Assembly (NCBI GenBank): GCA_965223385.1
Contig: CBDCWR010000007.1
Span: 2,739,165 to 2,803,164, forward strand
Length of the DNA: 64,000 nt
Origin: Candidatus Multivoraceae bacterium
GTDB lineage: Bacteria > Acidobacteriota > Thermoanaerobaculia > Multivoradales > Multivoraceae
Reading direction: 5' to 3'
Of the stretch, positions 5,500-33,624 are shown piece after piece. The position numbers and the translations under genes were made by a program. The stretch's first letter is position 1, and the number at the start of each line of letters is the position of its first letter. The notes beneath the pieces were generated by a model. It did no database searches. It was not told where the DNA came from and worked only from the letters and a program-made list of their open reading frames with translations.

Positions 5500-5519
5500 G
5501 GTCTTGCCTCCGTTCTTCG

Positions 5520-7868: not shown

Positions 7869-7890
7869 TCTCTCCTCGTTTCTCGTGGTG

Positions 7891-9628
<1,738 letters not shown>

Positions 9629-10069: not shown

Positions 10070-10072
10070 TCC

Positions 10073-11382: not shown

Positions 11383-11425
11383 TCACTACGGGCCCACGCC
11401 AGCGCGCAGCCGCTACGACCGACCC

Positions 11426-12847: not shown

Positions 12848-12859
12848 AGGGGTCGGGAG

Positions 12860-14074: not shown

Positions 14075-14107
14075 GCTCGTCACGTCTCCCCGCGGAGGAC
14101 CGACTCC

Positions 14108-15607
14108 ATGTCAGCACTGATTCCGATGTCTGCCCCGCCATCAGCTCGGGCCCTGCAGAAGCCCCGAACGCCTGCACTTGTCCTCACTCTCACGTTCCTC
14201 TGCCTCGCCCCTTCTGCACTGCTGCCTCAGAGCGCTGCCGAAGCTCCTCCTGTGAAGGCAGCGCTCAGAATCGCCGACGAGTGGCTCGAGTATCAGGTGG
14301 CCAGGCAGAACCTGCCGAGTCTCTCCATCGGACTGGTGATCGGTGGCGACCTGTTGTTCAAGAAGAGCTACGGCTACGCCGATGTCGAGAGCAGGACGCC
14401 GGCGACCGCCGACACGATCTACAGCATCTGTTCGGTGAGCAAGGTCTTCACCGCGGCAGCGGCCCTGCAGCTGCGCGATGCAAACGAGCTCTCTTTGGAC
14501 CAGGAGATCTCCGAACTGATTCCCTGGTACCGGAAGCGGGACACCTTCCCGGCGGGCGGCCCGGTCACTGTTCATGGCTTGCTCTCGCACTCTTCGGGGC
14601 TCCCCGACGATCTGAAGGGCACGTACTGGTCGGACCAGAGATTCCCGAGCCGGGATGAGGTCGAAGAACTGCTCAATGAAGCGACGGCCCTCTTTCCGGC
14701 TTCCACTCGCGAGGAATACTCGAACGTTGGCTACGAGATGGCCGGTTTTGTGGTCGAAGAGACTGCTGGCCGCAGCTTTGCCGACTACATCCGCAGCGAG
14801 TTTCTCGAGCCGCTGGGCATGGACGACACGACACTCGACATTCCGGTGGGCGACCCGAAACTCGCCACCGGCTATAGCGGCGGCGGCCGTTCGAACCAAC
14901 GCGACGAGATCGCCCCGTACCAGATCAAGAGCTTGACGGCCGCGGCGGGCATGGCCTCGACGGTGAACGACCTACTCAAGTTCGTCACCTGGCAGTTCCG
15001 GGTTCTGGCGAGCGGCGAGACCGAGATTCTCTCTCCGAGCACACTGCGAGAGATGATGACGGTGCAGTGGTTCAACCCAGGTCAGACGGCGCACCGTGGC
15101 TACGGCTACAGCGTGGTGGACCTGGGTGGCCAGACCATTGCCGGCAAAGACGGTGGCTGCCCTGGGTACGTGTCGCTCGTCATCCTGGATCCGCAGACCC
15201 AGCTCGGTGGGGTTCTCCTCATCAATGCCAACGGCGCCGACCCATGGGCGTTCCTGCGTGGTGCTTCCGAGCTCCTCGGCCCGGCTCTCGGGCGTGCCGC
15301 TGCGATGGCCCAGGCTTCGATGGGCGAGGCTCCGACTGATTTGAGCAGGTTCGAAGGCGTCTACCGCGGCTACCCGAGTGACATGGAGGTCGTGTTGGTG
15401 GCAGATGGCGGAACGCTCGTTCAGGCATCGCTCAATACTCTCTCGCCGGCAGGCGGCCTGGTAAAGCTCCGCCCTGTGGGCGACTTGCGCTTCGAGCGTC
15501 TGGGCAGCAACGGTGAGACCGTCGCGGAGGTGGTGTTCGTGCCCGACGGTGACGGCGCGATTGCTGAGCTGCACACCCTCGGCAGTGCTTGGACCAAAAC
15601 CAGGTAG
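14108..15607 (+). CDS. Serine hydrolase, class C beta-lactamase/esterase fold, secreted
   Basis: SVSK (SxxK) with the YSxN-like pattern; N-terminal signal peptide; 499 aa. Last gene of the pca-P450 co-directional run. Confidence 0.75.
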   Translation: MSALIPMSAPPSARALQKPRTPALVLTLTFLCLAPSALLPQSAAEAPPVKAALRIADEWLEYQVARQNLPSLSIGLVIGGDLLFKKSYGYADVESRTPATADTIYSICSVSKVFTAAAALQLRDANELSLDQEISELIPWYRKRDTFPAGGPVTVHGLLSHSSGLPDDLKGTYWSDQRFPSRDEVEELLNEATALFPASTREEYSNVGYEMAGFVVEETAGRSFADYIRSEFLEPLGMDDTTLDIPVGDPKLATGYSGGGRSNQRDEIAPYQIKSLTAAAGMASTVNDLLKFVTWQFRVLASGETEILSPSTLREMMTVQWFNPGQTAHRGYGYSVVDLGGQTIAGKDGGCPGYVSLVILDPQTQLGGVLLINANGADPWAFLRGASELLGPALGRAAAMAQASMGEAPTDLSRFEGVYRGYPSDMEVVLVADGGTLVQASLNTLSPAGGLVKLRPVGDLRFERLGSNGETVAEVVFVPDGDGAIAELHTLGSAWTKTR

Positions 15608-15922
15608 GACGTTCGGGATCGTCTCGGGCCAAGCTGACGGATGATCCAGAGGAGTCGGTCCTTGTCCTCGAACCGCGCCTTCCAGCCCGACGCAGCGCGC
15701 TGCGAGTTGGTGGCGAATGCTGGCTTTCGCCGACTGAGCTTTTTGCAAGAGTGCAGGCGATCTTGACTGAGCGACGACCTCGGCCCGACCGATACACCCG
15801 GACGATCCACTACGCTGCTCCCTCCGGTGCTCGCGTTGTGGCCTTCCCCTCACTGGAAGTACGACAACGAGGACATCAGGCACCAGCTCTTGCAGTTTCG
15901 GGCTTCTCGGCGACCCGAAGAT

Positions 15923-15947
15923 GCACGGGCGGCGCATGGTATCCCCA
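15923..15947. repeat. 25-bp perfect direct repeat (gcacgggcggcgcatggtatcccca), copy 1: candidate distal att site of a tRNA-Glu-associated island
   Basis: Identical to 29452..29476, which overlaps the 3' terminus of tRNA-Glu. Lies in a 640-bp gene-free segment. Confidence 0.6.
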
Positions 15948-16249
15948 GTGTCCGAGAGTTGGAACCAGATCTTTGCGGACCTGATCGTCCTCGTGGAACT
16001 AGGGCGCTCGGGTAGCGCGACGACACGTGTGCTGTGACTGACGGTCCCAGAATGTCTCGAATCACGGTCCCTAGCCTGATTGGAACCCCACAGAGGCCAC
16101 TTGCGGGGTTCAGGGAGCTAGGCATTTCAGCACCAGGATCGGAAAGCCAAGGGCGCGGCGGACGTTCCAGACCAGCGTTGCCCTGAGGTGGCGGGTAGCC
16201 CGCCGGAGAGCGTGCAGGGCGCGCGCTCCGGGCCTACGCTCAGCTCAGC

Positions 16250-18511
16250 TCAGCTCAGTTTCAGGGGCAGGCGGCGCAGGCGGAGCGCGTTGGTAATGAC
16301 CGACACGGAGCTGAAGCTCATGGCGGCGGCGGCGAACATCGGGCTCAGCAGCACGCCCGTGAACGGGTAGAGGAGACCAGCGGCAACCGGCACTCCGAGC
16401 GCGTTGTACACGAACGCGAAGAAGAGGTTCTGCCGGATGTTGCGCATGGTGCCGTCGCTCAGTTGGCGCGCGCGTACGATCCCAAGGAGGTCTCCCTTCA
16501 CCAGGGTCACGCCGGCGCTTTCCATGGCCACGTCCGTGCCGGTTCCCATCGCGATTCCCACGTCGGCACGTGCGAGAGCCGGCGCGTCGTTGATTCCGTC
16601 ACCCGCCATAGCGACCACGCGCCCCTGCTCGCGCAGCTCGCGCACGGCGAGCTCCTTGTGCTCCGGAAGCACCTCGGCGCGCACGTCGGAGATCCCCAGC
16701 TGTCGTCCCACCGCCTCGGCCGTGGTGCGGCTGTCGCCGGTCATCATCACCACCTGCAGGCCGCTGCGCTCGAAGGCCGCCAGGGCGTCCGAGGTGGTCT
16801 CTTTGATCGGGTCGGCGACGGCCACGAGCCCTGCAGCCGCGCCGTCGACCGCCACGAACATGATGGTCTGGCCTTCCGCCCGCCGGATTTCAGCGCGTTC
16901 CGCGAGGGCCGTGGCGTCTGCGTCCAGATCCTCCATGAGAGCTCGATTGCCGAGCGCGACCGACCGCCCGTCGACCCGGCCCACGACGCCCTTGCCGGTG
17001 ATCGACTGGAAGTCATCGGTGTCCGTCGGAGCAACGCCGCGGTCGGCTGCGCCGTCCACGATCGCCGTGGCCAGGGGATGCTCACTGCCGCGCTCGAGAC
17101 TCGCGCTCAGTCGGAGCAGCTCGTCATCCGGGAGAGAGTCCGAGACCACTCCGACCAGCCGAGGTCGGCCCTCGGTCAGCGTGCCCGTCTTGTCGACGAC
17201 GAGAGTGTCGACGTCCCGGAGGCGCTCGATCGCTTCCGCGTCCTTGAAGAGAACGCCGACCTCGGCTCCTTTTCCGGTGGCGACCATGATGGACATCGGG
17301 GTCGCCAGCCCGAGCGCGCAGGGGCACGCGATGATGAGCACGGCGATCGCGTTGACGAGCGCGTACGCCATCCGCGGCTCGGGGCCCACCGAGGCCCACA
17401 CGACGAACGTCAGCACGGCGACACCGATGACGATCGGCACGAAGATCCCGGCGACCACATCTGCGAGCTTCTGAATCGGAGCGCGGCTCCTCTGTGCGGC
17501 GGCCACCATGTCGACGATCTGCGAGAGCAACGTCTCGCTCCCGACCCGCTCCGCGCGCATGACCATCCCGCCGGTGCCGTTGACTGTGGCGCCGATCACG
17601 GGGTCGCCCTCGGCCTTCTCCACGGGCATCGGCTCTCCGGTGACCATCGACTCGTCGACCGAGCTGCGACCGGAGGTGACCGTGCCATCCACCGGGACCT
17701 TTTCGCCGGGCCTGATGCGCAGCAGATCGCCGACGGCCACCTGGTCGAGACCGATCTCCTGTTCCACGCCGTCTTCGCCCAGGCGCAGGGCCGTCTTCGC
17801 CTGCAGCCCGAGAAGCGCCTTGATCGCGGCGCCTGTCTTTGTGCGTGCCCGCAGCTCGAGGACCTGTCCCAGGAGGATGAGGGTGACGATGACCGCCGCA
17901 GCTTCGAAGTACACGCCCACCTCGCCGTGCTCGTCGCGGAACGAGGCCGGAAAGATCTCCGGCGCGAGGGCGGCGACGACGCTGAATCCATACGAAGCGG
18001 CGACGCCCAGGCCGATCAGCGTGAACATGTTCAGGCTGCGGTTTCTGAACGACTGGAGGCAGCGCATGAAGAAGGGCCAGGCGGACCACAGGCAGACGGG
18101 TGTCGCCAGCGCCAGCTCGAGGAGAACCCGCACCTGCGGGCGAATCAGGTTCGAGATCGGCTCTCCCGGAAGAACCATGTCTCCCATGGCGAGGACCAGC
18201 ACCGGCAGGGAGAACACGGCCGCCAGCCAGAAGCGCCTCGTCATGTCTCGGAGCTCCCCGTCGTCCTCCGGCTCGGCCGAAGGCGAGATGGGCTCGAGCG
18301 CCATGCCGCAGATCGGGCAGTTGCCGGGCTCGTCCTGGACGACCTCCGGGTGCATCGGACACGTCCATTTCGTCGCCGGAGGAGCATCCGGCCTCAGGGA
18401 TTCGAGGGCCATCCCGCACTTGGGGCAGCTGCCGGGCTCTTGCTCGAGAACCTCGGGATGCATGGGACACGTAAACCCTGTCGTGGCGGGTTCGTCGTTG
18501 TTCGAGAGCAT
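16250..18511 (-). CDS. copA: Copper-translocating P1B-type ATPase with two N-terminal CPMHPE..CPxCGM (YHS/TRASH-like) metal-binding domains
   Basis: CPC transmembrane motif ([12 protein letters not shown]), DKTGTLT phosphorylation site, [12 protein letters not shown] motif. N-terminus [22 protein letters not shown] and [22 protein letters not shown]. Confidence 0.9.
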
Positions 18512-18548
18512 CGCGTGCGACTCCTTTCTCGGGCGTCCGAGGTCTTCG

Positions 18549-19844
18549 TCAGGACAGAAAGATCCACGTCATCAGCAGGAAGAGAGGGAGGAGGATGGCG
18601 GCTGACCAACGGAAGTAGCCGAAGAACGAGGGCATGGGAACCCCATCTTCGTCCGCGATGAGCTTGACGACGAGATTGGGCGCGTTGCCGATGTACGTGA
18701 ACGCTCCCATCAGCACAGCTCCACATGAGATTGCCCGGAGCAGGCTCGGTCCGGGCTCTCCTCGGCCCAGGAGCTCGGCGAGAAAGAAGCGCTGGCTTGC
18801 ATCGACATCCAGGAGTCCGGCAGCCGCGCTCGCGAAGGTCAGGTAGGTCGGCGCGTTGTCGAGCCAGCTGGAAAGAAGGCCCGTGGCCCAGAAGAACTGC
18901 CAGGGCTCGCGGAGCCCGAGGCTCGAGCTGTGGGAGTTGAGTACGAGGACCGGCGCGGTCATCGTCACGAAGAGCCCGAGAAAGACCAGACCGACTTCGC
19001 GGATCGGCTTCCACGAGAAGCCGTTGGCCTCTCGAACGTCCCGGCTGGACGTTGCCCAGGCGGCTGAGGTCACGGTGATGAGGAAGAGCTCGTGTCCACC
19101 GAATGGCACGGATGCCAGAGCACCGGAGCGTCGCCCGACGATCGAGAGCAGGACGAGCGCGAGAAAGAGGAAGCTGACCAGACCGCGGACTCGCAGTGCG
19201 TCCGCAGCTTCAGGTTGCGCCCCGGTTGGCTCTTGCTCGTAGAGGACGCGATCGACGCAGTAGAAGCCGAGGAGCAGGAACGTGACCGCGAACGCCCAGT
19301 GATTCCAGAGTGTCTCGAGGGTCCAGGCGAACGGAACTCCACGGAGGAAACCGAGAAACAGCGGGGGGTCACCGAGTGCCGTGAGCAGACCGCCGACGTT
19401 CGACACGAGCAGAATGAAGAAGATCACCTGATGCGACCGATGAGCGCGCCACGCGTTCGCCCGGAGGAGAGGCCGGATGAGGATCACGGAGGCGCCCATC
19501 GTTCCCACCAGGCTGGCGAGCGCGGCGCCGGTCGCGAGCAGAGCGACGTTGGAGCGAGGGGTGCCCTTGAAGCCACCCTCGACCACCAGTCCGCTGGCGA
19601 TGACGTACAGCGCCGCGAGCAGCGTGACGAACGAGAAGTAGTCCTCGAGCGCGTGGCGCAGCTGCTCCACGCCTTCGGGCCCTCTGAACACGCCGAGGAG
19701 GATCGCCGCGGGTAGCGCCGCTGCGAGGCACACGGTGAGCTTGCTCCAGTCGTTGGACCACCACTCTGCAGCGATCTGCGGAAGGAGCGCGATCGAAACC
19801 AGGAGGAGGAGGAACGGCAGAACTGTCCAGAGAGGCAACGTCAT
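18549..19844 (-). CDS. ArsB/NhaD-superfamily permease (Na+/H+ antiporter NhaD-like / anion permease)
   Basis: ~432 aa polytopic membrane protein starting [23 protein letters not shown]. The upstream 135 codons of the ORF are Arg/Pro-rich junk. Confidence 0.55.
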
Positions 19845-19861
19845 GTCTGGTCCGCGGTCAA

Positions 19862-20119
19862 TTACCGACCCCGACTGGCGAAGACGTTGTAGAGCGGGGT
19901 CCAGATCAGGGCCACGAACCACCCATAGGCGTAGCTCTCCACGAGGCCGAGGGCGAAGTGCCCCCACGAGAGCCACTCGAATCCGGGCAGCAGGTCTCGC
20001 CACGCCTCGTACATCGCGTGCTCCGGGAAGAGGAGGTCGAAGCCGATACAGAGGGTGAAGCTGAGAGCCAGGAACAGGCTCGTCGCGTGCCCGAAGGCGG
20101 TGAGAGACAGGCGGGTCAT
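19862..20119 (-). CDS. Small membrane protein (2 TM), unknown function
   Basis: MTRLSLTAFGHATSLFLALSFTLCIGFDLLFPEHAMYEAWRDLLPGFEWLSWGHFALGLVESYAYGWFVALIWTPLYNVFASRGR. ATGA-type coupling with the upstream YHS gene (20116-20119). Confidence 0.4.
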   Translation of the reverse strand: MTRLSLTAFGHATSLFLALSFTLCIGFDLLFPEHAMYEAWRDLLPGFEWLSWGHFALGLVESYAYGWFVALIWTPLYNVFASRGR

Positions 20120-20448
20120 GGTCTCTCTCCTTGAGTGTTTTCTTTGGGTTCTGGAACGAAGGCGCGGGGGTCGGCCTCGAACCTCGTGCGGCAGCTCTTC
20201 GAGCAGAAGCGGTACGTGCGGCCGTCGAGCACGTGGGCCCAACCCTCATCGGCTGCGACCTTCATGCCGCACACGGGGTCGAGCGAATCGTCTCGAGCCC
20301 ACGCGGGGTCCGGCCGGCCACCGGCTTCGGAGTGGCGGACCAAGTGAGCTCCGTGCACCATTTCCGCGCCCCATCCGCCCCGCATGGCCAGGTAGAAGAC
20401 GAGCGCAAACGACAGGAGACCGAGCAGGTTCATGAAGAGGAATGTCAT
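20116..20448 (-). CDS. YHS-domain protein with N-terminal TM anchor
   Basis: DPVCGMKVAADEGWAHVLDGRTYRFCSKSCRTRFEADP is a YHS (TRASH-like) motif. Start MTFLFMNLLG with GGGAGGA SD. Confidence 0.65.
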   Translation of the reverse strand: MTFLFMNLLGLLSFALVFYLAMRGGWGAEMVHGAHLVRHSEAGGRPDPAWARDDSLDPVCGMKVAADEGWAHVLDGRTYRFCSKSCRTRFEADPRAFVPEPKENTQGERP

Positions 20449-20736
20449 GCAGAGTCCTCCCGCAGTGAGTTTTGGGACCGCGAGCGTCGAGGCCGCGGCT
20501 GGCACGGGATGCGCCGTGGATCGGCGTCGTGGGTGTCGCCGCCAGAATCACGGTGCTAGACGCAGGGCCTCTCGGTGCGTTACACCTCGTTGGGAAGCCG
20601 CTCGGGGCTTGCTGGGGCGAGGAGTCTTGCGCAGACCGTGCGCGTGGGCTCTCGGTCGAGGCAATCCGTAGTTGCCGCAACGCCCCACGAAACCAACCTC
20701 GGCCCTGAGAGCCGGGGGCAGTGAGCCGGGACGTTG

Positions 20737-21378
20737 CTAGCTGCTCGGCCCGGCTCGCGGACAGTCGCAGTCCAGGCAGCCGTGCTCGGCGCAGAGCCCG
20801 CACGTCACGAGCAGGGTCTCGCGCAGGGAGCGGCGGGCTCGATGGAGCCTGACCCGCGCGTTGGTGGGAGAGATTCCCAGGTTCTCCGCTACCTCGGTGA
20901 GCGGACGCTCGTCCAGGTCGACCTCGCGCAGAATTTCCCGGTAGCTGTCGCGGAGGGTCTCGATCGCGGCGGCAGCGCAGAGGCACGCGCTCCGGAAGAT
21001 CTCGTCGTCGAGTTCGGTCTCGGAGGGCTGCTCCGTGGCGAAGAGCTCTCTGGCCCGGCCCGTGGTGGCGCGTCGTCGGTACAAATCGGTCACGCTGTTG
21101 CGCAGGACCCGGTAGAACCAGGCGACCGGGCTCTCCAGAGCGTCCGCGTCGTTGCGAAGACCCTTCAGGTAGGCCTCGTGCAGGAGGTCTTCGGCGTCTT
21201 CGGGGTTGCCGACGCGCGGCTCGAGGAAGCGGAGAAAGTCGTCGCGCTTTTCCAGGAGCTGTGCGAGGTCGTGTCGATCGTCCGGGTCCACGCTCCCCAG
21301 GCTATTCCAAGAGACGGGATGACCGCAGGCCACGTGATTCGCTTGGGACCGATCCGTCTCTCTCGGTGGCGCGTACAC
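20737..21378 (-). CDS. ECF sigma-70 factor with C-terminal Cys-rich extension (CorE-like metal-sensing ECF)
   Basis: Sigma region 2 (DAEDLLHEAYLKGL, WFYRVLRNSVTDLYRRR), region 4 HTH (PLTEVAENLGISPTNARVRLHRARRSLR), then CGLCAEHGCLDCDC (six Cys). GTG start as in the ORF track; the true start may be downstream. Confidence 0.7.
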   Translation of the reverse strand: MYAPPRETDRSQANHVACGHPVSWNSLGSVDPDDRHDLAQLLEKRDDFLRFLEPRVGNPEDAEDLLHEAYLKGLRNDADALESPVAWFYRVLRNSVTDLYRRRATTGRARELFATEQPSETELDDEIFRSACLCAAAAIETLRDSYREILREVDLDERPLTEVAENLGISPTNARVRLHRARRSLRETLLVTCGLCAEHGCLDCDCPRAGPSS

Positions 21379-21459
21379 CGTTCAGGAATCCGAGGCACGT
21401 CCTCTCGTAGGTACTTGCCCTGATGGACACAGCGTTTGTCCACCCCGAGAGTCTCCGTC

Positions 21460-21822
21460 ATGAGCCGTCGAGCGCACATTTTGAGCGCAGCTGCCTGCCT
21501 CCTGCTCCTGCAGGCTCCGGCTCTGGCTGCTGCATGCGACCTCGCGGCCGACAGCTGCTCGATGGTCGAGATGGGGCACGCGAACGCCTGTGTCACGGCG
21601 TCCACGACCTTGGCCTGCTGCGACGCCGACGGTACGGCGGACGCCCTGCCCACCGAGCAGTCACGCAAGGCGCGCGAAGACGGCGCCCCGGCACTCGAAA
21701 CGGACCGGCCCAGAATCTGGGAGCCGGGCCGCTCGTTGGAGAGTCGGCATGTCCGCATCGACCGAGCCGTCGATCGTGCAGGACCGCCCCTGTTCCGGCT
21801 CCACGATTCCCTCCTGCTCTGA
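21460..21822 (+). CDS. Small secreted Cys/Met/His-containing protein (possible periplasmic metal-binding protein)
   Basis: Signal peptide MSRRAHILSAAACLLLLQAPALAAA; mature part ACDLAADSCSMVEMGHANACVTASTTLACCDADG. The C-terminal half is low-complexity, so the extent is uncertain. Confidence 0.3.
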   Translation: MSRRAHILSAAACLLLLQAPALAAACDLAADSCSMVEMGHANACVTASTTLACCDADGTADALPTEQSRKAREDGAPALETDRPRIWEPGRSLESRHVRIDRAVDRAGPPLFRLHDSLLL

Positions 21823-21943
21823 GTTGCCGGAGACGCGACCGCCCCGTAAGTCGGGTGGGTCGGCGTCTCTGAGCTAGCGGCGATACGTCGCGTGCACCGC
21901 CGTGCGGTGCGCGCGGGCCCGTGAACAGACTTGGAGGGATGCA

Positions 21944-23326
21944 GTGCTGCTCCTCATTGATGTTGCTTGCTTGTGGCTCCTTCTCGGCGCAGCCGAGGTC
22001 GTGCAGGAGCTTCCCGACGAGCTCGAGCTCGTCGAACCCAACGCGGTTCCAGCCAGTGAGACGCCGGTCTCCGAGGCTCTGGCGCGCCAGATTCGCGTGC
22101 CGGAGCTCGAGACCCTGGCAAAAGAGGTTCTCGCCAGGAACCCTGCGCTGGCGCGTGCCAGTGCCATGGCGCGCGCTGCGTCCCTGCGCGCGCCGCAGGT
22201 GAAGGCTCTCCCCGATCCGAGCGCCCAGCTCACCGCCTTTCTCGACTCCCCGGAGACGCGAGTGGGCCCGCAGAGAGTCGGGGTCAGCGTGTCTCAGGCC
22301 ATCCCCTGGCTCAGCAAGCTGTCTCTGGCGGAGAAAGCCGCGGTCCTTCACGCGGGCGCGCTCCTCGCCGACGTGGAAGGGCGACGGTTGACGCTGGTGA
22401 CCGAGACGCGGCGCCTGGCGTACGAGCTGGCCTTCGTCGCGCGTCTCCGGTCGATCACGGAGAGCTATCGGCGACACCTGCTGCAGCACGAGGAGATCGC
22501 CAGGGCTCGCTACGCCACGGGATCGGGTCTCGGTCAGGACGTCCTCAAGCTTCAGGCCGCGATCACGCAGGTGGAGACCGAGCTCCTCGCGATCGACTCG
22601 CGGGAGCTCCATCTCGCCGCGCGTCTCAATCGGCTGCGCGACCGCCCTGCCGCCGCCGTGCTGCCACGCTTCGTGTTGCCAGCGGGCTTCGACAGCGGCG
22701 CAGTCGAATCGGAGCTCGTGGGCCAAGCTCTCTCCCGTCGACCGGAAGTGCGCGCCGCCGACCTTGAGATCGATCGCGGCGACACCCTCGTGGAGCTGGC
22801 TCGAAAGCGCTATCGCCCGGACTTTCGCGCGGGGTTCTCCTACACCCTCGTCAACCGACGCCAGGATGCCCCGGGGCGCGCCAACCCGCCCGAGGACGAC
22901 GGCGACGACATCTTCGGGGCACAGGTCGGCGTTTCCATTCCGATCTGGCGCAGGAAGCTGGTGGCGGGTCTCGAAGAGGCCGTGGAGCATCGGAGCGTGG
23001 CCGAGGAGGCCAAGCGCGACCTCGTCGCTGGAATCCAGGCCGACGTCGGCGATCTGGCGCAGCGCATCCCCCTCGCCTACGAGCAGTTCCGGCTCGTCGA
23101 CGACCTCCTGATCGCCCAGGCCGAGGAGTCGCTGGAGTCGGCGAAGTCGGCCTACGTCGCCAGCACCGTCAACGCACTCGAACTGCTCGACGCGGAGCAC
23201 GTGCTCTTTGGTGCCGAGAAGGCCGCGGCGCGAGCCCATGCGGACTGGGCGATTGCGGTCGCCAGGCTCGAAGGAACGATCGCCGGAGCTCTGACCGAGA
23301 AGCCCTCGAAGGAGGTGTCGCAATGA
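21944..23326 (+). CDS. TolC-family outer-membrane efflux protein (CusC-like)
   Basis: Two-repeat OEP architecture (LTLVTETRRLAYELAFVARLR...; ...ESAKSAYVASTVNALELLDAEHVLFGAEKAAARAHADWAIAVARLEG). Start placed at the in-frame GTG behind a GGAGGG SD (MLLLIDVACLWLLLGAAEV...); the ORF track starts at 21902. Confidence 0.75.
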   Translation: MLLLIDVACLWLLLGAAEVVQELPDELELVEPNAVPASETPVSEALARQIRVPELETLAKEVLARNPALARASAMARAASLRAPQVKALPDPSAQLTAFLDSPETRVGPQRVGVSVSQAIPWLSKLSLAEKAAVLHAGALLADVEGRRLTLVTETRRLAYELAFVARLRSITESYRRHLLQHEEIARARYATGSGLGQDVLKLQAAITQVETELLAIDSRELHLAARLNRLRDRPAAAVLPRFVLPAGFDSGAVESELVGQALSRRPEVRAADLEIDRGDTLVELARKRYRPDFRAGFSYTLVNRRQDAPGRANPPEDDGDDIFGAQVGVSIPIWRRKLVAGLEEAVEHRSVAEEAKRDLVAGIQADVGDLAQRIPLAYEQFRLVDDLLIAQAEESLESAKSAYVASTVNALELLDAEHVLFGAEKAAARAHADWAIAVARLEGTIAGALTEKPSKEVSQ

Positions 23327-24912
23327 ACTCACCTGAAACGCCCGGATCCGTCGCCCGCTCGCTCGTCCAGCCGATCGGTTGGGTCGCCTCGAGCTTCGTG
23401 GTGTTTGTCCTTCTCTTCCTGGATCCCCTCGATCTGCATCCGCTCGACGGCTGGCTGAGGGCGCGCCTGGGCGTGCCGGTTGCGGCTCCGGAGGAAGCGA
23501 AGGGGGGTGATGCTCCCTTGTACTACCGGAACCCCATGGATCCCACGATCACGTCGCCGGTGCCGAAGAAGGACGAGATGGGCATGGACTACGTCCCCGT
23601 GTATCGGGACGAGTCTGACGCTCCGAGCGGAGAGCGGAGGATTCTCTTCTACAGGAACCCGATGGATCCGACCGTGACGTCTCCGGTTCCGAAACAAGAC
23701 TCGATGGGCATGGACTACGTCCCCGTGTACGACGACGGGCCTGGCACCTCAGCGCAGGGCGGGGTTACGGTCGAGATCGACCCGGCCGTGGTTCAGAACA
23801 TGAACGTGCAGACGGCGGAGGTGATGCGTCGAGACCTCGAGCACGAGCTGCGCACGGTGGGCTACTTCGAGTACGACCAGGAACGGATGGTGACGGTCAC
23901 GACCAAGTACAGCGGCTGGGTCGAGAAGGTCTATGTCAACTATGTCGGCGAGCCGGTGAAGAAGGGTGATCCCCTGTTCGAGGTGTACTCGCCGGAGCTG
24001 GTGCAGACGGGGCAGGAGCTGCTGTCTGCCCGGGCATATGCCTCGCGGCTCGAAGACGCACCGGAAGGAGCGAGGGAGCGTGCACGAGCGCTCCACGAAG
24101 CTGCACGGACGCGCTTGAGCTACTGGGACGTCTCCCCAGAGCAGATCGCCGAGATCGAGCGCTCGGGAGAGGTCTTGCGGACGCTCCAGGTCGTGGCGCC
24201 CGCGAGTGGGCTCGTCATGAAGCGCATGCCGGGGCTGGAGGGCATGGCGGTGAAGCCAGGCATGGAGGCGTACCACATCGCAGATCTCTCGAGCCTCTGG
24301 CTGAGCGTGGAGGTGTTCGAGGATCAGGTCGCACTGGTGCGGGAGGGAACGCCGGCTTCGATCACGCTGCCGTACTTTCCCGGGGAGGAGTTCCGTGGAC
24401 GCGTGCGGTTCGTCGAGCCGGAGCTCTCCGCGTCGACGCGGACTCTCAGCGTGAAGCTCGAGGTTCCCAACCGGGGTGGGAGGTTGCGTGCTGGGATGTT
24501 CGCCACCGTCCGCTTCACGCCGGTGGCGGCGCGCGGGGCCGTCACCGTTCCCTCACACGCGGTGCTTCGGACCGGTCGACGGACCGTGGTGGTAGAGGCT
24601 CTGGGGAACGGTCGGTTCGCTCCCCGGGAGGTGACCCTGGGACACGAATCGCGCGGGGTCGTCGAGGTCCTCGAGGGCCTGGAAGAAGGGCAGCGCGTCG
24701 TGACGTCCGCCCAGTTCCTTCTCGACTCCGAGGCGAGCCTGCAGGAGGCCGTGCAGAAGATGATTGCTGCCGCAAGCGAAGCGCCGCAGGCGGCCGAGCC
24801 CATGCAGCACGGCGAGGAGACGCAGGAGCACGAGCACGGGACCCCCGCGGAGATTCGGGAGCCGCAGGAGCACGATGCGCACGAGGCCGGGGAGCACGCT
24901 CATGCTCCATAG
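23323..24912 (+). CDS. RND efflux periplasmic adaptor (CusB-like) with duplicated Cys-free N-terminal motif and His-rich C-terminal tail
   Basis: Membrane-fusion-protein beta-barrel/lipoyl motifs. Two tandem copies of YYRNPMDPT(I/V)TSPVPK(K/Q)D(E/S)MGMDYVPVY (~23518-23601 and ~23650-23733). C-terminal EPMQHGEETQEHEHGTPAEIREPQEHDAHEAGEHAHAP. ATGA overlap with cusC. Confidence 0.8.
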   Translation: MNSPETPGSVARSLVQPIGWVASSFVVFVLLFLDPLDLHPLDGWLRARLGVPVAAPEEAKGGDAPLYYRNPMDPTITSPVPKKDEMGMDYVPVYRDESDAPSGERRILFYRNPMDPTVTSPVPKQDSMGMDYVPVYDDGPGTSAQGGVTVEIDPAVVQNMNVQTAEVMRRDLEHELRTVGYFEYDQERMVTVTTKYSGWVEKVYVNYVGEPVKKGDPLFEVYSPELVQTGQELLSARAYASRLEDAPEGARERARALHEAARTRLSYWDVSPEQIAEIERSGEVLRTLQVVAPASGLVMKRMPGLEGMAVKPGMEAYHIADLSSLWLSVEVFEDQVALVREGTPASITLPYFPGEEFRGRVRFVEPELSASTRTLSVKLEVPNRGGRLRAGMFATVRFTPVAARGAVTVPSHAVLRTGRRTVVVEALGNGRFAPREVTLGHESRGVVEVLEGLEEGQRVVTSAQFLLDSEASLQEAVQKMIAAASEAPQAAEPMQHGEETQEHEHGTPAEIREPQEHDAHEAGEHAHAP

Positions 24913-27900
24913 GGTCATCGAGTGGTCGCTTCGCAACCAGCTCCTGGTCACTGTCGGGATGCTTCTCATCGTGCTCGCAGGCTTCTGGGCGATCCGCACG
25001 ACCCGCATCGACGCGATCCCGGATCTCTCGGACGTCCAGGTCATCCTCTTCACCGAGTTCCCCGGGCAGGCGCCGCAGGTCGTCGAGGACCAGGTCACCT
25101 ATCCGATCACGAGCAAGATGCTCGCCGTTCCTTTCGCCAAGGTGGTCCGCGGCTACTCGTTCTTCGGCTTCTCGTTCGTCTATGTCATCTTCGAGGACGG
25201 AACGGATCTGTACTGGGCGCGCTCGCGCGTGCTCGAGTACCTCTCCGGCCTCGCGGCGGACCTGCCGGACGGGGTGACGCCGCAGCTCGGGCCCGACGCC
25301 ACGGGGGTCGGCTGGGCCTTCATGTACACGCTCAACTCGAACGAGCGCTCGCTGGCCGATCTCAGGAGTTACCAGGACTGGTACCTCAAGTACGGCCTCG
25401 CATCGGTCGACGGTGTTTCGGAGGTCGCCTCGATCGGTGGCTTCGTACGCCAGTACCAGGTCGAGGTCGATCCGGTGCGACTTCGCGCCTACGGGCTGCC
25501 GATCCAGAAGGTCAGACAGGCGATTCAGCGCTCGAACGTCGAGGTCGGGGGACGCCTGGTCGAGATTGCCGAGCGGGAGTTCATGGTTCGTGGCCGCGGC
25601 TACGTCCAGGACGTCCGAGACCTCGAGGCCGTCACGTTGGGAGCGGGCCCGGGTGGGGTCCCCATCCTCCTCGAGGACGTGGCGAACGTGACGATCGGGC
25701 CGGAGATCCGGCGGGGCCTCGTCGACTGGAACGGAGAAGGGGAGACGGTGGGTGGCGTCGTGGTCGTCCGCTGGGGAGCCGACACGCGCACGACCATCGA
25801 GAACGTGAAGGCTCGTCTCGAAGAGCTGAGGGAGGGTCTCCCCGAGGACGTGGAAATCTCGGTGGCGTACGACCGGACGGCGCTCATCGAGCGTTCGATC
25901 GACACGCTCGCCGACACCCTGGTCGAAGAGTCCATCGTGGTCGCCCTGGTCTGCCTGGTCTTCCTTTTCCACTTCCGTTCTGCGCTGGTCGCGATCTTCT
26001 CGATTCCGCTGTCGATCCTCCTCGCCTTCGTCGTGATGAAGGTCCAGGGCCTCGGCGCCAACATCATGTCGCTCGGCGGGATCGCGATCTCCATCGGCGT
26101 TCTCGTGGACGCGGCCGTGGTGATGGTGGAGAACGCCCACAAGCACACCGAGCGCTGGAAGGGCAAACGCTCGCACTTCGAGATCATCCTGCGCTCCTCC
26201 CAAGAGGTCGGACCGGCTCTCTTCTTCACGCTGCTCATCATCACGGTCTCGTTCATGCCGATCTTCACGCTCCAGGCGCAGGAAGGGCGCCTCTTCCGAC
26301 CTCTCGCGTTCACCAAGACCTACGCGATCGCTCTCTCGTCCATCCTGGCCGTCACGGTCGTGCCCGTGCTCATGCTCTGGCTGGTGCGGGGAAAGATCCG
26401 GAGTGAAGAACGGCACCCGATGTCGCGACTGCTTCGCTTCTTCTACGAGCCCGTCCTCAACCTCGCTCTGCGGTGGCGGTGGGCGGTGGTCGTGGGTGTA
26501 GTGATCGTGCTGTTGCTCTCCATCGCTCCTTTCCAACGGCTCGGCTCGGAGTTCATGCCTCCGCTGTGGGAGGGCGACCTCCTGTACATGCCGACGACCT
26601 TCCCGGGCGTCTCCATTACCAAGGCCCGGGAGATTGCGCAGCAGACCGACAAGATCATCCGCTCCTTCCCCGAGGTCGAGACGGTCTTTGGCAAGGTCGG
26701 GCGGGCGGAGACCGCCACCGACCCTGCGCCGCTGTCGATGCTGGAAACGACGATCGTTCTCAAGGATCCGTCGGAGTGGCGACCAGGCCTCACCAAAGAA
26801 GAGCTCATCGCCGAGCTGGATGCCGCGATCGACTTTCCTGGGGTCACGAACGCCTGGACGATGCCCATCAAGACGCGGATCGACATGCTGTCGACCGGCA
26901 TCAAGACGCCTGTCGGCATCAAGATCGCCGGCCCGGACCTGACCGTTCTGGAAGAGCTCGGAGAGCAGGTCGAGGCGATCGTCAAGCCGCTCCCGGGCAC
27001 GCTCTCCGCGTACGCCGAGCGGGTGATGGGCGGGAGCTACCTCGACTTCGACATCGACCGACAGGCCGCGTCCCGGTACGGTTTGAACGTGGGTGACGTG
27101 CAGGACGTCGTGCAGTCTGCGGTGGGAGGTATGAACGTCTCGTGGACGGTCGAGGGGCTCGAGCGCTACCCGATCAACGTGCGCTACCCGCGGGAGCTGC
27201 GGGATGATCCGCAGGCGCTCCGCGAGGTCCTCGTGGCGACACCGTCCGGCGCGCAGGTGCCGCTGGGCCAGCTGGCGCGCATCGAGCTGCGACAAGGTCC
27301 TCCCGGGATCAAATCGGAGAACGCGAGGCCCAATGCCTGGGTCTACATCGACCTCGAGGGCATCGATGTCGGCACGTGGGTCGAGCGAGCCCAGGAGGAG
27401 GTGCGCGAGAAGCTGACCTTGCCCTCCGGCTACACCCTCTTCTGGTCGGGTCAGTACGAGTACATGCAGCGGGCGAAGCAGCGGCTGACGCTGATCGTGC
27501 CGATCACGCTCGGCTTGATCATTCTCATCCTCTATCTTCACACCCACTCGGTGATCAAGACGGCTCTGGTCTTGTCGGCGATTCCCTTCGGCCTGGTGGG
27601 GTCGATTTGGTTGCTCGATCTCCTGGACTACAACCTCTCGATCGCCGTGTGGGTCGGAGTGATCGCGCTCGCCGGCCTGGCGACGGAGTTCGGCGTGGTC
27701 ATGCTCCTCTTTCTCGATCTGGCCTGGGAAGAGGCGCAGAAGGAGGGCCGAGTCGCGACCCACGCGGATCTGCTGCGAGTGGTGGATCGCGGGGCGGTGC
27801 AGCGCATTCGCCCGATGACGATGACCACGATGACCACCTTCTTGTCCCTGGCTCCGATCCTCTTCGCGACCGGGACGGGGGCGGATGTCATGCGGAGGAT

Positions 27901-28060
27901 CGCAGCTCCCATGGTGGGAGGCGTCGTCACCTCGTTCGTGGGCGTGCTGCTGGTGCTGCCCGCGGTCTTCTTCATTTGGCGCTCCTTCGGCCTCGAACGG
28001 AGTACGCTGAGGCCCGAAGCGGTCGCTGACGCCGGCCCGGGATCCGGGGCCGCCTCGTGA
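24902..28060 (+). CDS. Heavy-metal-efflux RND pump (CusA/CzcA family)
   Basis: MLHRVIEWSLRNQLLVTVGMLLIVLAGFWAI..., 12-TM RND architecture, 1052 aa. Overlaps the end of the adaptor gene by 11 nt. Confidence 0.85.
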   Translation: MLHRVIEWSLRNQLLVTVGMLLIVLAGFWAIRTTRIDAIPDLSDVQVILFTEFPGQAPQVVEDQVTYPITSKMLAVPFAKVVRGYSFFGFSFVYVIFEDGTDLYWARSRVLEYLSGLAADLPDGVTPQLGPDATGVGWAFMYTLNSNERSLADLRSYQDWYLKYGLASVDGVSEVASIGGFVRQYQVEVDPVRLRAYGLPIQKVRQAIQRSNVEVGGRLVEIAEREFMVRGRGYVQDVRDLEAVTLGAGPGGVPILLEDVANVTIGPEIRRGLVDWNGEGETVGGVVVVRWGADTRTTIENVKARLEELREGLPEDVEISVAYDRTALIERSIDTLADTLVEESIVVALVCLVFLFHFRSALVAIFSIPLSILLAFVVMKVQGLGANIMSLGGIAISIGVLVDAAVVMVENAHKHTERWKGKRSHFEIILRSSQEVGPALFFTLLIITVSFMPIFTLQAQEGRLFRPLAFTKTYAIALSSILAVTVVPVLMLWLVRGKIRSEERHPMSRLLRFFYEPVLNLALRWRWAVVVGVVIVLLLSIAPFQRLGSEFMPPLWEGDLLYMPTTFPGVSITKAREIAQQTDKIIRSFPEVETVFGKVGRAETATDPAPLSMLETTIVLKDPSEWRPGLTKEELIAELDAAIDFPGVTNAWTMPIKTRIDMLSTGIKTPVGIKIAGPDLTVLEELGEQVEAIVKPLPGTLSAYAERVMGGSYLDFDIDRQAASRYGLNVGDVQDVVQSAVGGMNVSWTVEGLERYPINVRYPRELRDDPQALREVLVATPSGAQVPLGQLARIELRQGPPGIKSENARPNAWVYIDLEGIDVGTWVERAQEEVREKLTLPSGYTLFWSGQYEYMQRAKQRLTLIVPITLGLIILILYLHTHSVIKTALVLSAIPFGLVGSIWLLDLLDYNLSIAVWVGVIALAGLATEFGVVMLLFLDLAWEEAQKEGRVATHADLLRVVDRGAVQRIRPMTMTTMTTFLSLAPILFATGTGADVMRRIAAPMVGGVVTSFVGVLLVLPAVFFIWRSFGLERSTLRPEAVADAGPGSGAAS

Positions 28061-28172
28061 CGCGCGTCACCGGTCCCGGGGTCGTGGACGGAGCCTCCAG
28101 CTGCCGGCGAGGGGATCCGGGAGACACGCCGCTTCTTGACCCCGTTCGAAACATGGTGGAGGTCCCCTGAAC

Positions 28173-29336
28173 ATGCGCAGAGCTCACACGAATCCCCTGG
28201 TCGTCCTCGTTTTGGCGGTCGCAGCATGGGGAGGCGCCTGCCACCGCCCGGCCCACGGCCAGGGCTTCGCTCAGCCGGATGTCGGCGAAAGAGCGCGATC
28301 GCTCCATCTGCGGAGCTCGCACGACGGGGGCCTTCTCTTGAGCTGGCTCGAACCGCACGGTGATGGGCATCGGCTCGTCTTCACCGTGCTCGAGGACGGC
28401 CGCTGGTCGCCCCCGAAGCAGGTCGCGGCTGGAGGGTCCTTCCTGGCGAACTGGGCGGACACCCCTGCCGTCGTCCAGGGCCCTCGAGGTGTGCTTTATG
28501 CGCACTGGCTCGAGACGCTCGGCGAAGGCCACGCCTATGGCGCTCGGGCCGCCCGGTCGGCCAATGGCGGAGATTCATGGGTGGAGCTGGGCTGGCTCCA
28601 CGACGACACTTCGCCGGTGGAGCACGGATTCGTCTCCTACGCGGTGACGCCAAAGGGCCTGCGCGCCTTCTGGCTGGACGGCCGGACGATGGGCGAGCCT
28701 GGGGGCGCGACGGCGCTTCGCACCGCACTCGTCGGCCAGACGGAGGGGACACCCCCCAGCGTGGTGCTGGACCCGCGTGTCTGTGAGTGCTGCGCGACGG
28801 ACGCCGTGAAAGGCCCTGCCGGCCCAGTGGTCGTCTACCGCGACCGCAGCGAAGACGAGGTGCGCGACATCTCGCTCCTCCGGTGGACGACCGACGGCTG
28901 GAGCGCGCCGATCACCGTGCACCGCGACGGTTGGCAGATCGACGGCTGTCCGGTGAACGGCCCGGCCATTGATGCGCGGGATGATCGTGTCGCCGTCGCG
29001 TGGTTCACGGCGGCGGGGGAAAGCGCCGCGGTGAAACTCTCGGTCTCTACAGACGGCGGGCAGAGCTTCGGCGTGCCTACTGTCGTCGACGGGGACAGGC
29101 CGGTCGGGCGCGCCGACGTCGCACTCGGGGCAGGGGGTCGAGTTTGGGTGCTGTGGGTAGGGCGGGGTGGCGCGGTTGAGCTCGGTGAATTCACCTCCAA
29201 CGGGACTTTGGAGGCTGCTCATGAGGTCGCGGAGCGCCAAGGGCGATCGAGCGTACCGAAACTGGCGAGCTACGGTGCCGGCGTCGCGGTGGCGTTCAGT
29301 AGCGAGAAGACGATTCGGGTGGAGACGTTTCGTTGA
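28173..29336 (+). CDS. Secreted BNR/Asp-box repeat protein (sialidase-like beta-propeller), unknown function
   Basis: Signal peptide; Asp-box-like SANGGDSW and STDGGQSF repeats. Confidence 0.55.
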   Translation: MRRAHTNPLVVLVLAVAAWGGACHRPAHGQGFAQPDVGERARSLHLRSSHDGGLLLSWLEPHGDGHRLVFTVLEDGRWSPPKQVAAGGSFLANWADTPAVVQGPRGVLYAHWLETLGEGHAYGARAARSANGGDSWVELGWLHDDTSPVEHGFVSYAVTPKGLRAFWLDGRTMGEPGGATALRTALVGQTEGTPPSVVLDPRVCECCATDAVKGPAGPVVVYRDRSEDEVRDISLLRWTTDGWSAPITVHRDGWQIDGCPVNGPAIDARDDRVAVAWFTAAGESAAVKLSVSTDGGQSFGVPTVVDGDRPVGRADVALGAGGRVWVLWVGRGGAVELGEFTSNGTLEAAHEVAERQGRSSVPKLASYGAGVAVAFSSEKTIRVETFR

Positions 29337-29451
29337 CCCGCCGCGCGGGCGCTGGGCGGAGGACGTGTCTCTCGCCTTGGCAACGGCGCACGATCGCTCG
29401 GTTTGTTCAGCCTCCAGCAGTCAGTCCAAGTGGACGCTTGCGGTCGAGAAC

Positions 29452-29476
29452 GCACGGGCGGCGCATGGTATCCCCA
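29452..29476. repeat. 25-bp direct repeat copy 2 (candidate tRNA-proximal att site) spanning the 3' terminus of tRNA-Glu
   Basis: Exact match to 15923..15947; covers the last ~10 nt of the tRNA plus 15 nt of 3' flank. Confidence 0.6.
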
Positions 29477-29543
29477 ACGGGATTCGAACCCGTGTCGCCA
29501 GCTTGAAAGGCTGGTGTCCTAGACCTGACTAGACGATGGGGAC
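29467..29543 (-). tRNA. tRNA-Glu (anticodon TTC)
   Basis: Reverse complement GTCCCCATCGTCTAGTCAGGTCTAGGACACCAGCCTTTCAAGCTGGCGACACGGGTTCGAATCCCGTTGGGGATACCA: cloverleaf with a CTTTCAA anticodon loop and encoded CCA. Confidence 0.85.
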
Positions 29544-29670
29544 AGACATGCGCCGCGCGTGCCCGGCGCCAGCGCCGGGCACGAAGCAGATTGTAGGGCA
29601 TTCCCCGCAATTCGAGGAAGCCCCGGCACGGGGGGCGCGTTGGGTGCGCGCGCCCCGAGATGGGCGCGAC

Positions 29671-30018
29671 CTAGGTCGAGGACGCGGCCTGGCTCAGGGC
29701 CTTCGCGTCGGCCTTGAGGAGCGAGAGATCGCTGTACTCGAGCGACTTGCCGCTGGGCAGCGTGACGGTGATCGCGAGCGATGCTGCGCCGGCCGGGGCG
29801 CGCCGTGCGCGGCGGTTTTTTGCAGGAGCACTCCTGTTGGTTCCAATGATCTTGAGAACCGTGGGGTAGCTGATCGAAGTGTCCTTGGCAATCTTCGACT
29901 TGCTATGTGACTTGGCCGCGTCACGAATGGCCTTCTTGAGCTCGGGGGAGTACCGAGTACGACCTTTTTTGGAGCGATCCTTCTTCGCGAGCTCGATCGC
30001 CGTGGCGAGTGCGCTCAT
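29671..30018 (-). CDS. Stand-alone HTH protein resembling IS3-family OrfA (transposase_8 HTH); possible IS remnant
   Basis: RTRYSPELKKAIRDAAKSHSKSKIAKDTSISYPTVLKIIG resembles the RYSPEFK...HTH signature of IS3/IS911 OrfA. No orfB follows. Lies between two tRNA genes. Confidence 0.4.
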   Translation of the reverse strand: MSALATAIELAKKDRSKKGRTRYSPELKKAIRDAAKSHSKSKIAKDTSISYPTVLKIIGTNRSAPAKNRRARRAPAGAASLAITVTLPSGKSLEYSDLSLLKADAKALSQAASST

Positions 30019-30340
30019 CGGTGTTCTCCTTCTTGTGGGGGGCAGTTTCTGGTGAATACCGCGGCCATCCTGGCGTCAGATGTACTGATTGTCAACAGAA
30101 AAACTAGGAATTGCCAGGGCTCGAGGTTCTGAGGTCGAAGCCTCTCAACGTCTCTCGCACCGAGCCCTGTGCCGTGAGGCGCAGCGCTCGATTCGGAGGG
30201 GTCTTCCCAGGAGCTCTACACAGCCGCGCTGGGACGTCACCGCAGTAGACCTTCACCCTAGCAAAGAACAGGGAGGTTGATAGTCAACCGTTGTCGAGTC
30301 GCATGCAACGTTGCAACGAAACGCGAAAAGAAACCTCGAG

Positions 30341-30689
30341 GAGCGAGCCCCATCCGCCGCTCGAGCGCGTTGGATTCATCGGCGCAGATCGCGGTCGGGA
30401 GAGGGCGAGCGAAGCAAGCCCGCAGCCCCAGACCGCTTGGGTATTCGACGACGGCGGCGTTCGGGAAGGGAGCGAGCCCCATCCGCCGCTCGAGCGCGTT
30501 GGATTCATCGGCGCAGATCGCGGTCGGGAGAGGGCGAGCGAAGCAAGCCCGCAGCCCCAGACCGCTTGGGTATTCGACGACGGCGGCGTTCGGGAAGGGA
30601 GCGAGCCCCATCCGCCGCTCGAGCGCGTTGGATTCATCGGCGCAGATCGCGGTCGGGAGAGGGCGAGCGAAGCAAGCCCGCAGCCCCAG
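30341..30689. repeat. Tandem repeat array, 129-bp unit x ~2.7 (in-frame, 43-codon period)
   Basis: Units begin at 30341, 30470 and 30599 and are near-identical. Multi-frame ORFs appear only because of the periodicity. Confidence 0.85.
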
Positions 30690-30730
30690 GGAATCGTCGA
30701 CGACCGGCCCGCCGGGCCGGTCGTCACCGG

Positions 30731-30791
30731 GTTCCCTCACGGCCCACGAGGAGCGAGCGCCAGCGAGCGTTCGTGGGCCGTGAGGGAATCG
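30731..30791. repeat. Inverted duplicate of the tRNA-Lys 3' end forming a ~19-bp hairpin with the tRNA's own T-stem/acceptor 3' strand
   Basis: 30731-30749 gttccctcacggcccacga is the reverse complement of 30771-30789, separated by a 21-nt loop. Confidence 0.6.
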
Positions 30792-33152: not shown

Positions 33153-33219
33153 CCGTTTGACAAGGGCCGCGGTCGAGCTAGCAGCGCGCAACCCAACGAG
33201 CGCAGCGAAGTGGCTCTCT

Positions 33220-33624
33220 GGCCTGGAGGCGGCGAACGCCGCCGACGGGCCCGGGCAGGGCCCGGGCCGAAGCGACGCGGGCGCAGCCCGCATGGAGCGG
33301 TCCGCGGGTTACGAGCTGGCGTGCGTGCGCTAGTCAGCGCAGCCAAAAATGCCGTTTCTCCGGCCTGGAGGCGGCGAACGCCGCCGACCGGCCCGGGCAG
33401 GGCCCGGGCCGAAGCGACGCGGGCGCAGCCCGCATGGAGCGGTCCGCGAGTGACTAGCTGGCGTGCGTGCGCTAGTCAGCGCAGCCAAAATGCCGTTTCT
33501 CCGGCCTGGAGGCGGCGAACGCCGCCGACCGGCCCGGGCAGGGCCCGGGCCGAAGCGACGCGGGCGCAGCCCGCATGGAGCGGTCCGCGAGTGACTAGCT
33601 GGCGTGCGTGCGCTAGTCAGCGCA
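33220..33624. repeat. Tandem repeat array, ~141-bp unit x ~2.9, rich in short GC palindromes (ggcggcgaacgccgcc; cccgggcagggcccggg)
   Basis: Units begin at 33220, 33362 and 33503. Lies in the convergent intergenic space between the protease and thiolase genes, abutting the thiolase stop. Confidence 0.85.

Follow-up and report, generated by a model that had tools for sequence, protein, structure and literature searches.

A 64 kb stretch of the 4.4 Mb genome of a Candidatus Multivoraceae bacterium (Acidobacteriota; contig CBDCWR010000007.1), hereafter termed the window, carries an intact tRNA-Glu gene that appears to have served as an integration site for genomic islands. Judged from sequence layout, it is reasonably probable that region 2897-29476 represents a tandem of two integrase-less islands flanked by attachment (att) sites at the tRNA-Glu 3′ end. 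From the tRNA outward, the array consists of tRNA-Glu with repeat copy O1, a 13.5 kb copper (Cu) block, repeat copy O2, a 13.0 kb catabolic block (block 2), and repeat copy O3. The Cu block extends from O2 to O1, adjoins tRNA-Glu, and measures 13,529 nt from core start to core start. The initial annotation of this DNA described a lone copper-resistance island and placed the pca catabolic genes outside it. That view is mostly correct and needs completing: the pca genes lie in a second repeat-bounded, integrase-less block, and the Cu block is the tRNA-proximal of the two.

Repeat copies at the tRNA-Glu 3′ end

The array is delimited by a 25-mer, GCACGGGCGGCGCATGGTATCCCCA, with two exact + strand copies in the window (O1 and O2; Table 1), compared to a chance expectation of 0 in 100 shuffles of the window. 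The tRNA portion of O1 comprises TGGGGAT (the 3′ acceptor strand), the discriminator A, and the encoded CCA. The initial annotation recognised this overlap of tRNA end and trailer, although it assigned ~10 nt to the tRNA and 15 nt to its flank; with the ARAGORN gene boundary the true split is 11 + 14 nt. O2 occupies a 642-nt gene-free gap between convergent genes for a serine hydrolase (ends at 15607) and CopA (ends at 16250), as expected from the earlier description of a second copy 13.5 kb away in a gene-free stretch. The 25-mer had been reported to occur exactly twice, which holds for exact copies but misses a third copy with four mismatches (O3) in a 198-nt intergenic gap between a GGDEF gene (ends at 2842) and an enolase-family gene (ends at 3041). 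None of 200 order-3 Markov simulations of the window produced any site with ≤4 mismatches, and the real window contains no core copies with 5-6 mismatches; O3 is, therefore, considered homologous rather than a chance match. At ≤3 mismatches, only the two exact copies are found.

O1, O2, and O3 share one orientation and are all found to the 3′ side of tRNA-Glu. In the other direction, the 34.5 kb located 5′ of the tRNA contain no core copy at ≤6 mismatches, and 1.16 Mb of sequence retrieved from related loci is likewise free of copies. A degenerate version of the core (23-mer) gave 0 matches in genome, viral, and metagenome contig collections, and an 18-mer gave 0 matches in viral contigs. Likeness among O1, O2, and O3 spans just ~25-32 nt and the flanking DNA is unrelated, as expected of att cores and not of a miniature inverted-repeat transposable element (MITE) or repetitive extragenic palindromic (REP) element. 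Extended homology between the island ends was ruled out because the flanks do not align, and O2 and O3 were rejected as decayed whole tRNA genes because neither has significant tRNA-body similarity beside it. Read from the sequence, the short core, its direct orientation, its start exactly at the acceptor strand, and the position of all copies past the tRNA 3′ end are the signature of ‘asymmetric 3′ end’ integration. This sublocation of tRNA genes is known as an integration site (bioRxiv 10.1101/2020.11.02.365908). The geometry agrees with the att duplication at a tRNA 3′ end that was proposed initially: the tRNA gene is intact at one end, and a displaced 3′ fragment lies in direct orientation at the other.

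The trailer portion of the core is informative about its origin. A metagenome contig (L120) carries a tRNA-Glu that is identical over 78 nt and has a different leader and trailer, which makes the 14-nt trailer lineage-specific; the O1/O2 identity therefore reflects a true duplication and not conservation. When metagenomes were scanned for the tRNA-Glu 3′ end, L120 was the only locus with an identical tRNA, and the other loci showed only anticodon-loop-type fragments or tandem tRNAs; L120 has just 133 nt downstream of tRNA-Glu.

Mobility genes were sought by comparing all called open reading frames (ORFs) with Pfam, NCBIfam, and PHROGs and by searching the whole 64 kb with a P4-type integrase using tblastn. 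The earlier claim that no integrase, excisionase, or transposase lies inside the Cu block is borne out and extends to the entire window. Relaxase, type IV secretion system, and recombinase families are absent from both the Cu block and block 2. No replication or packaging genes were seen in the window, nor are remnants of an integrative and conjugative element (ICE) or integrative and mobilizable element (IME) visible there.

A tandem of two islands would arise by two integrations. A tyrosine recombinase would cross over at the asymmetric 3′-end sublocation, which comprises the acceptor-stem 3′ strand, CCA, and trailer. The 13.0 kb catabolic block would have integrated first, and its distal scar, O3, would since have diverged at 4/25 positions. 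The 13.5 kb Cu/silver (Ag) block would then have integrated at the regenerated tRNA-proximal site to produce the perfect O1/O2 pair. The integration module may have been deleted later, to leave a decayed element like the cis-mobilizable elements (CIMEs) discussed below, or it may never have belonged to either block and may act in trans from another part of the genome. Tyrosine-recombinase integration, the order of events, and mobility, whether present or past, are what we infer from this layout, as is the ‘decayed or in-trans-mobilised’ condition suggested initially. An incoming attP must match the site of this species because the trailer is lineage-specific; the last transfer, therefore, probably occurred within the species population.

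Cargo of the two blocks and its relatives

Genes of the Cu block are listed in Table 1 together with the repeat copies, tRNA-Glu, and block 2. The coherent Cu/Ag resistance module recognised in the initial gene list is confirmed by Pfam and NCBIfam, while the ‘BNR’ label given to the 387-aa protein rests on just a weak match. Family membership indicates both a P1B-1 ATPase and a tripartite pump of the heavy-metal efflux resistance-nodulation-division (HME-RND) type, which together mark a putative Cu(I)/Ag(I) determinant.

Table 1. Positions in the window of the repeat copies, tRNA-Glu, block 2, and the genes of the Cu block (RND, resistance-nodulation-division; ECF, extracytoplasmic function; TM, transmembrane segment).
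Feature	Coordinates	Strand	Basis or remark
O3, degenerate third copy, GCACGAGCGGCGCACGGTATCCCTC	2897-2921	+	21/25 positions; same orientation as O1/O2
Block 2, 13.0 kb, O3 to O2	2922-15922		Enolase-family dehydratase, beta-lactamase-fold protein, S15 peptidase, PobA-like FAD monooxygenase, PcaC/H/G/B, P450, serine hydrolase
O2, perfect second core copy	15923-15947	+	Distal end of Cu block and proximal end of block 2
CopA, Cu(I)-exporting P1B-type ATPase, two HMBD metal-binding domains	16250-18511	-	Pfam; TIGR01511, 590.8 bits (cut-off 397)
CitMHS_2 permease (ArsB/NhaD superfamily)	18549-19844	-	Family match; 431 aa from internal ATG
DUF5676 small 2-TM protein	19862-20119	-	Family match
YHS/TRASH-domain metal-binding protein	20116-20505	-	Family match
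ECF sigma factor, C-terminal Cys-rich tail CGLCAEHGCLDCDC	20737-21378	-	Divergent from cus operon
Cys-rich secreted protein	21436-21822	+	No family match
CusC-type outer-membrane factor (OEP)	21902-23326	+	Pfam
CusB-type membrane-fusion protein	23323-24912	+	Pfam HlyD_D23/CusB
CusA-type heavy-metal RND pump	24902-28060	+	Pfam ACR_tran; 78-81% homologs named Cu(I)/Ag(I) efflux CusA/SilA by JGI
Predicted lipoprotein, 387 aa, weakly BNR/sialidase-like	28173-29336	+	BNR match, E 0.07
O1, tRNA-proximal core copy, attL-like	29452-29476	+	Last 11 nt of tRNA-Glu including CCA, and 14 nt of trailer
Intact tRNA-Glu(UUC)	29466-29543	-	ARAGORN (TTC anticodon); confirmed by Rfam at 29469-29543; islands lie downstream of 3′ end
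tRNA-Glu leader segment	29546-29562	+	Complementary to trailer part of O1; predicted ~15 bp helix extending acceptor stem

By analogy with their families, CopA would export cytoplasmic Cu(I) to the periplasm, and CusCBA would carry it on through the outer membrane. Accessory metal handling may fall to the YHS, DUF5676, CitMHS_2, and Cys-rich proteins. In the ECF sigma factor, regions 2 and 4 were found and the Cys-rich tail was read directly; no anti-sigma family occurs nearby, and the best NCBIfam model, SigZ, scores below its cut-off. With its Cys-rich tail and divergent orientation relative to cusCBA, it is likely to be the metal-responsive regulator. CorE of Myxococcus xanthus is a Cys-rich ECF sigma factor linked to cus/cop copper-silver determinants. 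The window shares with such determinants the P1B ATPase, CusCBA, the Cys-tailed ECF sigma factor, and the lack of an adjacent anti-sigma gene; its sigma factor is a candidate member of the CorE group. The 5′ part of cusB contains a 95-nt internal duplication with 80% identity (23523-23617 and 23649-23743). It also occurs in two related loci (L033 and L034) and is, therefore, an old repeated N-terminal motif of CusB that is likely to bind metal.

The gene for the 387-aa lipoprotein sits beside the tRNA, where an integrase is usually found. It was considered as a hidden integrase and ruled out: the protein has a signal/lipobox N-terminus and weak BNR matches, and nothing was found in PDB, PHROGs, or NCBIfam.

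Some features of the array concern both blocks. Their lengths are nearly equal, with 13,026 and 13,529 nt from start to start (2897-15947 and 15923-29476), which could be coincidence or could reflect a size constraint. The hexamer CGGTCC occurs at 3026, 15656, 16042, and 16065, on the + strand only. Copies of it are found at distances of 95 and 118 nt from O2 and of 105 nt from O3, always to one and the same side of the core. Four copies in 851 nt of island-end DNA compare with 0.4 expected, and 1.6% of positions have the motif at such a distance. These copies are candidate arm-type integrase sites that were picked out post hoc. A further candidate arm-type site, also with post-hoc statistics, is TCGGTCCTT, which has two occurrences in the window, one at each end of block 2.

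The Cu module is also found elsewhere. The closest CusA (89% aa identity) belongs to a locus (L033; ENA ERZ25072999, ctg315800) that shares the ECF sigma factor, CusCBA, YHS, DUF5676, CitMHS_2, and CopA with the window, with DNA that is 73-78% identical. Unlike the window, L033 has its YHS-to-CopA block on the opposite side and strand, no 387-aa lipoprotein, and a P4-type integrase next to a tRNA-Phe 3′ fragment of the anticodon-loop sublocation. A simple circular permutation between the two modules was ruled out because the copA block is also inverted. The integrase (Arm-DNA-bind_3, Phage_int_M, Phage_integrase) lies 2.7 kb beyond copA, and a 50-nt tRNA-Phe(GAA) 3′ fragment, from the anticodon loop to CCA, is situated ~140 nt from the 5′ end of the integrase gene (L033, 20665-22010). 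No tRNA-Phe 5′ half, second copy in the 22 kb to the left, or intact tRNA occurs in L033. An island usually lies on the 5′ side of the displaced tRNA fragment. With that geometry, the L033 island would span at least 22 kb and cover the integrase, copA, and the cus and czc (czcCBA) operons, and its far end would lie outside the locus. Three other CusA relatives with 81-82% identity occur in unrelated contexts with no integrase within 10 kb. On sequence grounds, the Cu module is accessory and variably placed in this lineage and, in the nearest case, rides a tRNA-integrating island; we draw the latter point from the uninterrupted DNA that the L033 module shares with the integrase and the tRNA-Phe fragment.

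Names of the best protein matches place the organism in Acidobacteriota. Relatives with the flank thiolase at 88-93% (L030, L031, L035, and L036) lack synteny on the tRNA side or have a contig that ends in a 141-nt tandem array. GCA_039026915.1, with a thiolase at 93%, is among the closest metagenome-assembled genomes. The best relative of the block 2 serine hydrolase has 59% identity (L032), and it is unlinked and not syntenic. The M12B peptidase was tried as a flank anchor in GTDB genomes and rejected, with a best match of 37% identity and no synteny.

Surroundings of tRNA-Glu

The tRNA-Glu flanks are structured. Positions 29452-29468 and 29546-29562 form an inverted repeat (15/17 positions), and the predicted precursor has a folding energy of -65 kcal/mol (z = -2.9). 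In L120 the flanks, though different, also pair, over 6 bp only. The spacing between tRNA-Lys and tRNA-Glu is 1.2 kb in the window (29544-30772) compared to 61 nt in L120. The additional DNA contains a 115-aa ORF on the minus strand (29671-30018) with a good ribosome-binding site and a weak match to helix-turn-helix (HTH) domains of DNA invertase and ISL3 transposase, and a perfect tandem array of 129 nt x 2.7 (30340-30689). The tRNA-Lys 3′ end has a perfect 18-nt inverted copy 20 nt past the gene (30733-30750 and 30771-30788), which could be a terminator, a processing signal, or an att relic. On the reverse strand, a 26-mer, GCGCTGTGCGCAGTGGTCTGCCCAAC, opens the L120 trailer and has a second copy 107 nt downstream, exactly at the contig end, with a long palindrome in between; this pair probably represents another tandem array beside tRNA-Glu.

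Repeats also occur farther from the tRNA. A GC-rich, highly structured tandem array of 141 nt x 2.9 lies downstream of the thiolase gene (33215-33624); it is kept at 87-91% in the relative with the 93% thiolase (L031, 11226-11421), whose contig breaks inside the array. A 256-nt direct repeat with 70% identity has its two copies 15 kb apart (42120-42375 and 57248-57503).

Competing explanations and implications

Both blocks hold accessory cargo, which speaks for two stacked islands. Several observations weigh against this interpretation. The 64 kb window contains no integrase, excisionase, transposase, relaxase, or remnant of these, and no empty site was seen in the relatives examined, none of which is syntenic on the tRNA side. 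The closest CusA is about as close as the best match of the housekeeping thiolase in the flank, so that nothing demands a recent foreign origin. The duplicated part of the tRNA gene (tDNA), at 11 nt, is shorter than most catalogued tDNA fragments, and the CGGTCC statistics fail multiple-testing correction. Base composition mildly favours it, with a signal whose small size counts against it. A comparison inside and outside the repeats, as the initial annotation proposed, gives codon-weighted GC contents at third codon positions (GC3) of 0.788 for block 2, 0.837 for the Cu block, and 0.860 for the right flank (23 genes in 33 kb right of the tRNA). GC3 is thus lower inside both blocks (Mann-Whitney test against the right flank, p = 0.0008 for block 2 and p = 0.04 for the Cu block), but the difference is only mild, and tetranucleotide correlations with the right flank are 0.96-0.98 for the blocks compared to 0.98 among right-flank segments. 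The shift has the expected direction yet is small.

Explanations that dispense with integration have to account for the same repeats. The 25-mer could be a short dispersed intergenic repeat, for example one derived from a tRNA 3′ end or associated with a terminator, that flanks the blocks by accident. Such a repeat would fit with three copies rather than two, of which one is degenerate, with the location of every copy in a gap between convergent genes with no recombinase nearby, and with a lineage that is rich in odd intergenic repeats. It fits poorly with the exact match in position between one copy and the acceptor/CCA end of a live tRNA, with a shared orientation, tRNA 3′ side, and island-sized spacing, and with the absence of copies beyond the tRNA and in related loci. 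The copies also have no extended element structure, and a REP/MITE-like family is not apparent in the window, where there are three copies in one orientation without flank similarity. A dispersed repeat is thus unlikely. Alternatively, both blocks could be old and vertically inherited, and the repeats could have arisen locally, when the tRNA-Glu 3′ end underwent a small duplication or was copied by gene conversion, or could be relics of decayed tRNA-Glu genes, with no information about mobility. Composition near that of the flanks, the lack of mobility genes, and closest CusA homologs from the same phylum with identities like those of a housekeeping gene would all be consistent with such a history. 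However, no remnant of a tRNA body lies beside O2 or O3, and a perfect 25-bp copy that starts exactly at the acceptor stem 13.5 kb away is unlike slippage or whole-tRNA decay. Moreover, the block 2 serine hydrolase is without a close ortholog, and Cu modules have a different context in every relative examined. Purely vertical inheritance seems improbable to us.

Another explanation accepts integration and makes it current. A tRNA-Glu-specific integrase encoded elsewhere could actively move ~13 kb modules in trans, possibly within a packaging limit, as in tycheposon or satellite cargo arrays. The perfect O1/O2 pair with its species-specific trailer, the near-equal block lengths, the candidate arm-type motifs at a conserved distance from the core, and the stand-alone resolvase-type HTH gene that adjoins the tRNA are compatible with active shuffling. 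Against it, the window has no integrase, replication, or packaging gene, the size match consists of two values, the motif evidence is post hoc, and the degenerate O3 suggests that the older block is fixed; we regard ongoing shuffling as quite doubtful. A related and equally speculative proposal is that the tRNA-Glu 3′ end is a cassette site with its integrase elsewhere, into which ~13 kb recombinase-less cargo (copper resistance and aromatic catabolism) is inserted, stacked, and possibly exchanged in the population. If so, the similar lengths of the modules would stem from a limit on transfer or packaging, and the core would reach into a species-specific trailer, which pairs with the leader of the tRNA as well.

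Two decayed or in-trans-mobilised islands in tandem would have parallels in known systems. Integrase-less att-flanked elements (CIMEs) and tandem accretion at att sites have been described (PMC5704250). Like the ICESt1-related CIME19258 and CIME302 of Streptococcus thermophilus, the array has attL/attR direct repeats at the 3′ end of the target gene, no integration or transfer genes, and a tandem arrangement with three att copies (PMC5704250). In the window, the perfect O1/O2 pair would correspond to retained attL and attR while integration and transfer genes are gone, and the three-copy tandem array is compatible with accretion. CIMEs are, however, deletion derivatives of identifiable ICEs or IMEs that are mobilised when a related ICE integrates alongside (PMC5704250), whereas no such remnant or partner is visible here and the host is an acidobacterial metagenome-assembled genome. 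A related Cu module does adjoin an integrase in L033, at a different tRNA. Islander tDNA islands and tandem arrays (PMC4383910) likewise have a regenerated intact tDNA, a displaced direct 3′ fragment, and several islands per tDNA. The window has the intact target tRNA gene at one end (ARAGORN, Rfam) and, at the far ends, directly oriented displaced pieces of that tDNA (25/25 at O2 and 21/25 at O3). Islander requires an integrase for each island, and most crossovers in its catalogue fall within the anticodon or T-loop region (PMC4383910). In contrast, no tyrosine-recombinase integrase gene lies inside either block, and the last 11 nt of the tDNA and the trailer are duplicated, which corresponds to the rarer asymmetric 3′-end sublocation (bioRxiv 10.1101/2020.11.02.365908). 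In tycheposon islands of Prochlorococcus (bioRxiv 10.1101/2020.12.28.424599), successive integrations at one tRNA similarly push older elements inward and leave partial tRNA copies and degenerate, integrase-less cargo; those islands have recognisable integrase fragments and, in some cells, live elements, whereas the window has none.

Decayed att-flanked islands and tandem accretion are already established, and these concepts are unchanged by the present case. Island finders that require an integrase, such as those of the Islander type, overlook blocks of this kind. Acidobacteriota are abundant in soil and their mobile elements have been little described. If two islands are indeed stacked at tRNA-Glu, this region would be a documented case in Acidobacteriota of islands accreting at a tRNA and of cargo blocks without an integrase, and it would mean that modules for copper/silver resistance and aromatic catabolism are exchanged at a tRNA hot spot in this phylum.

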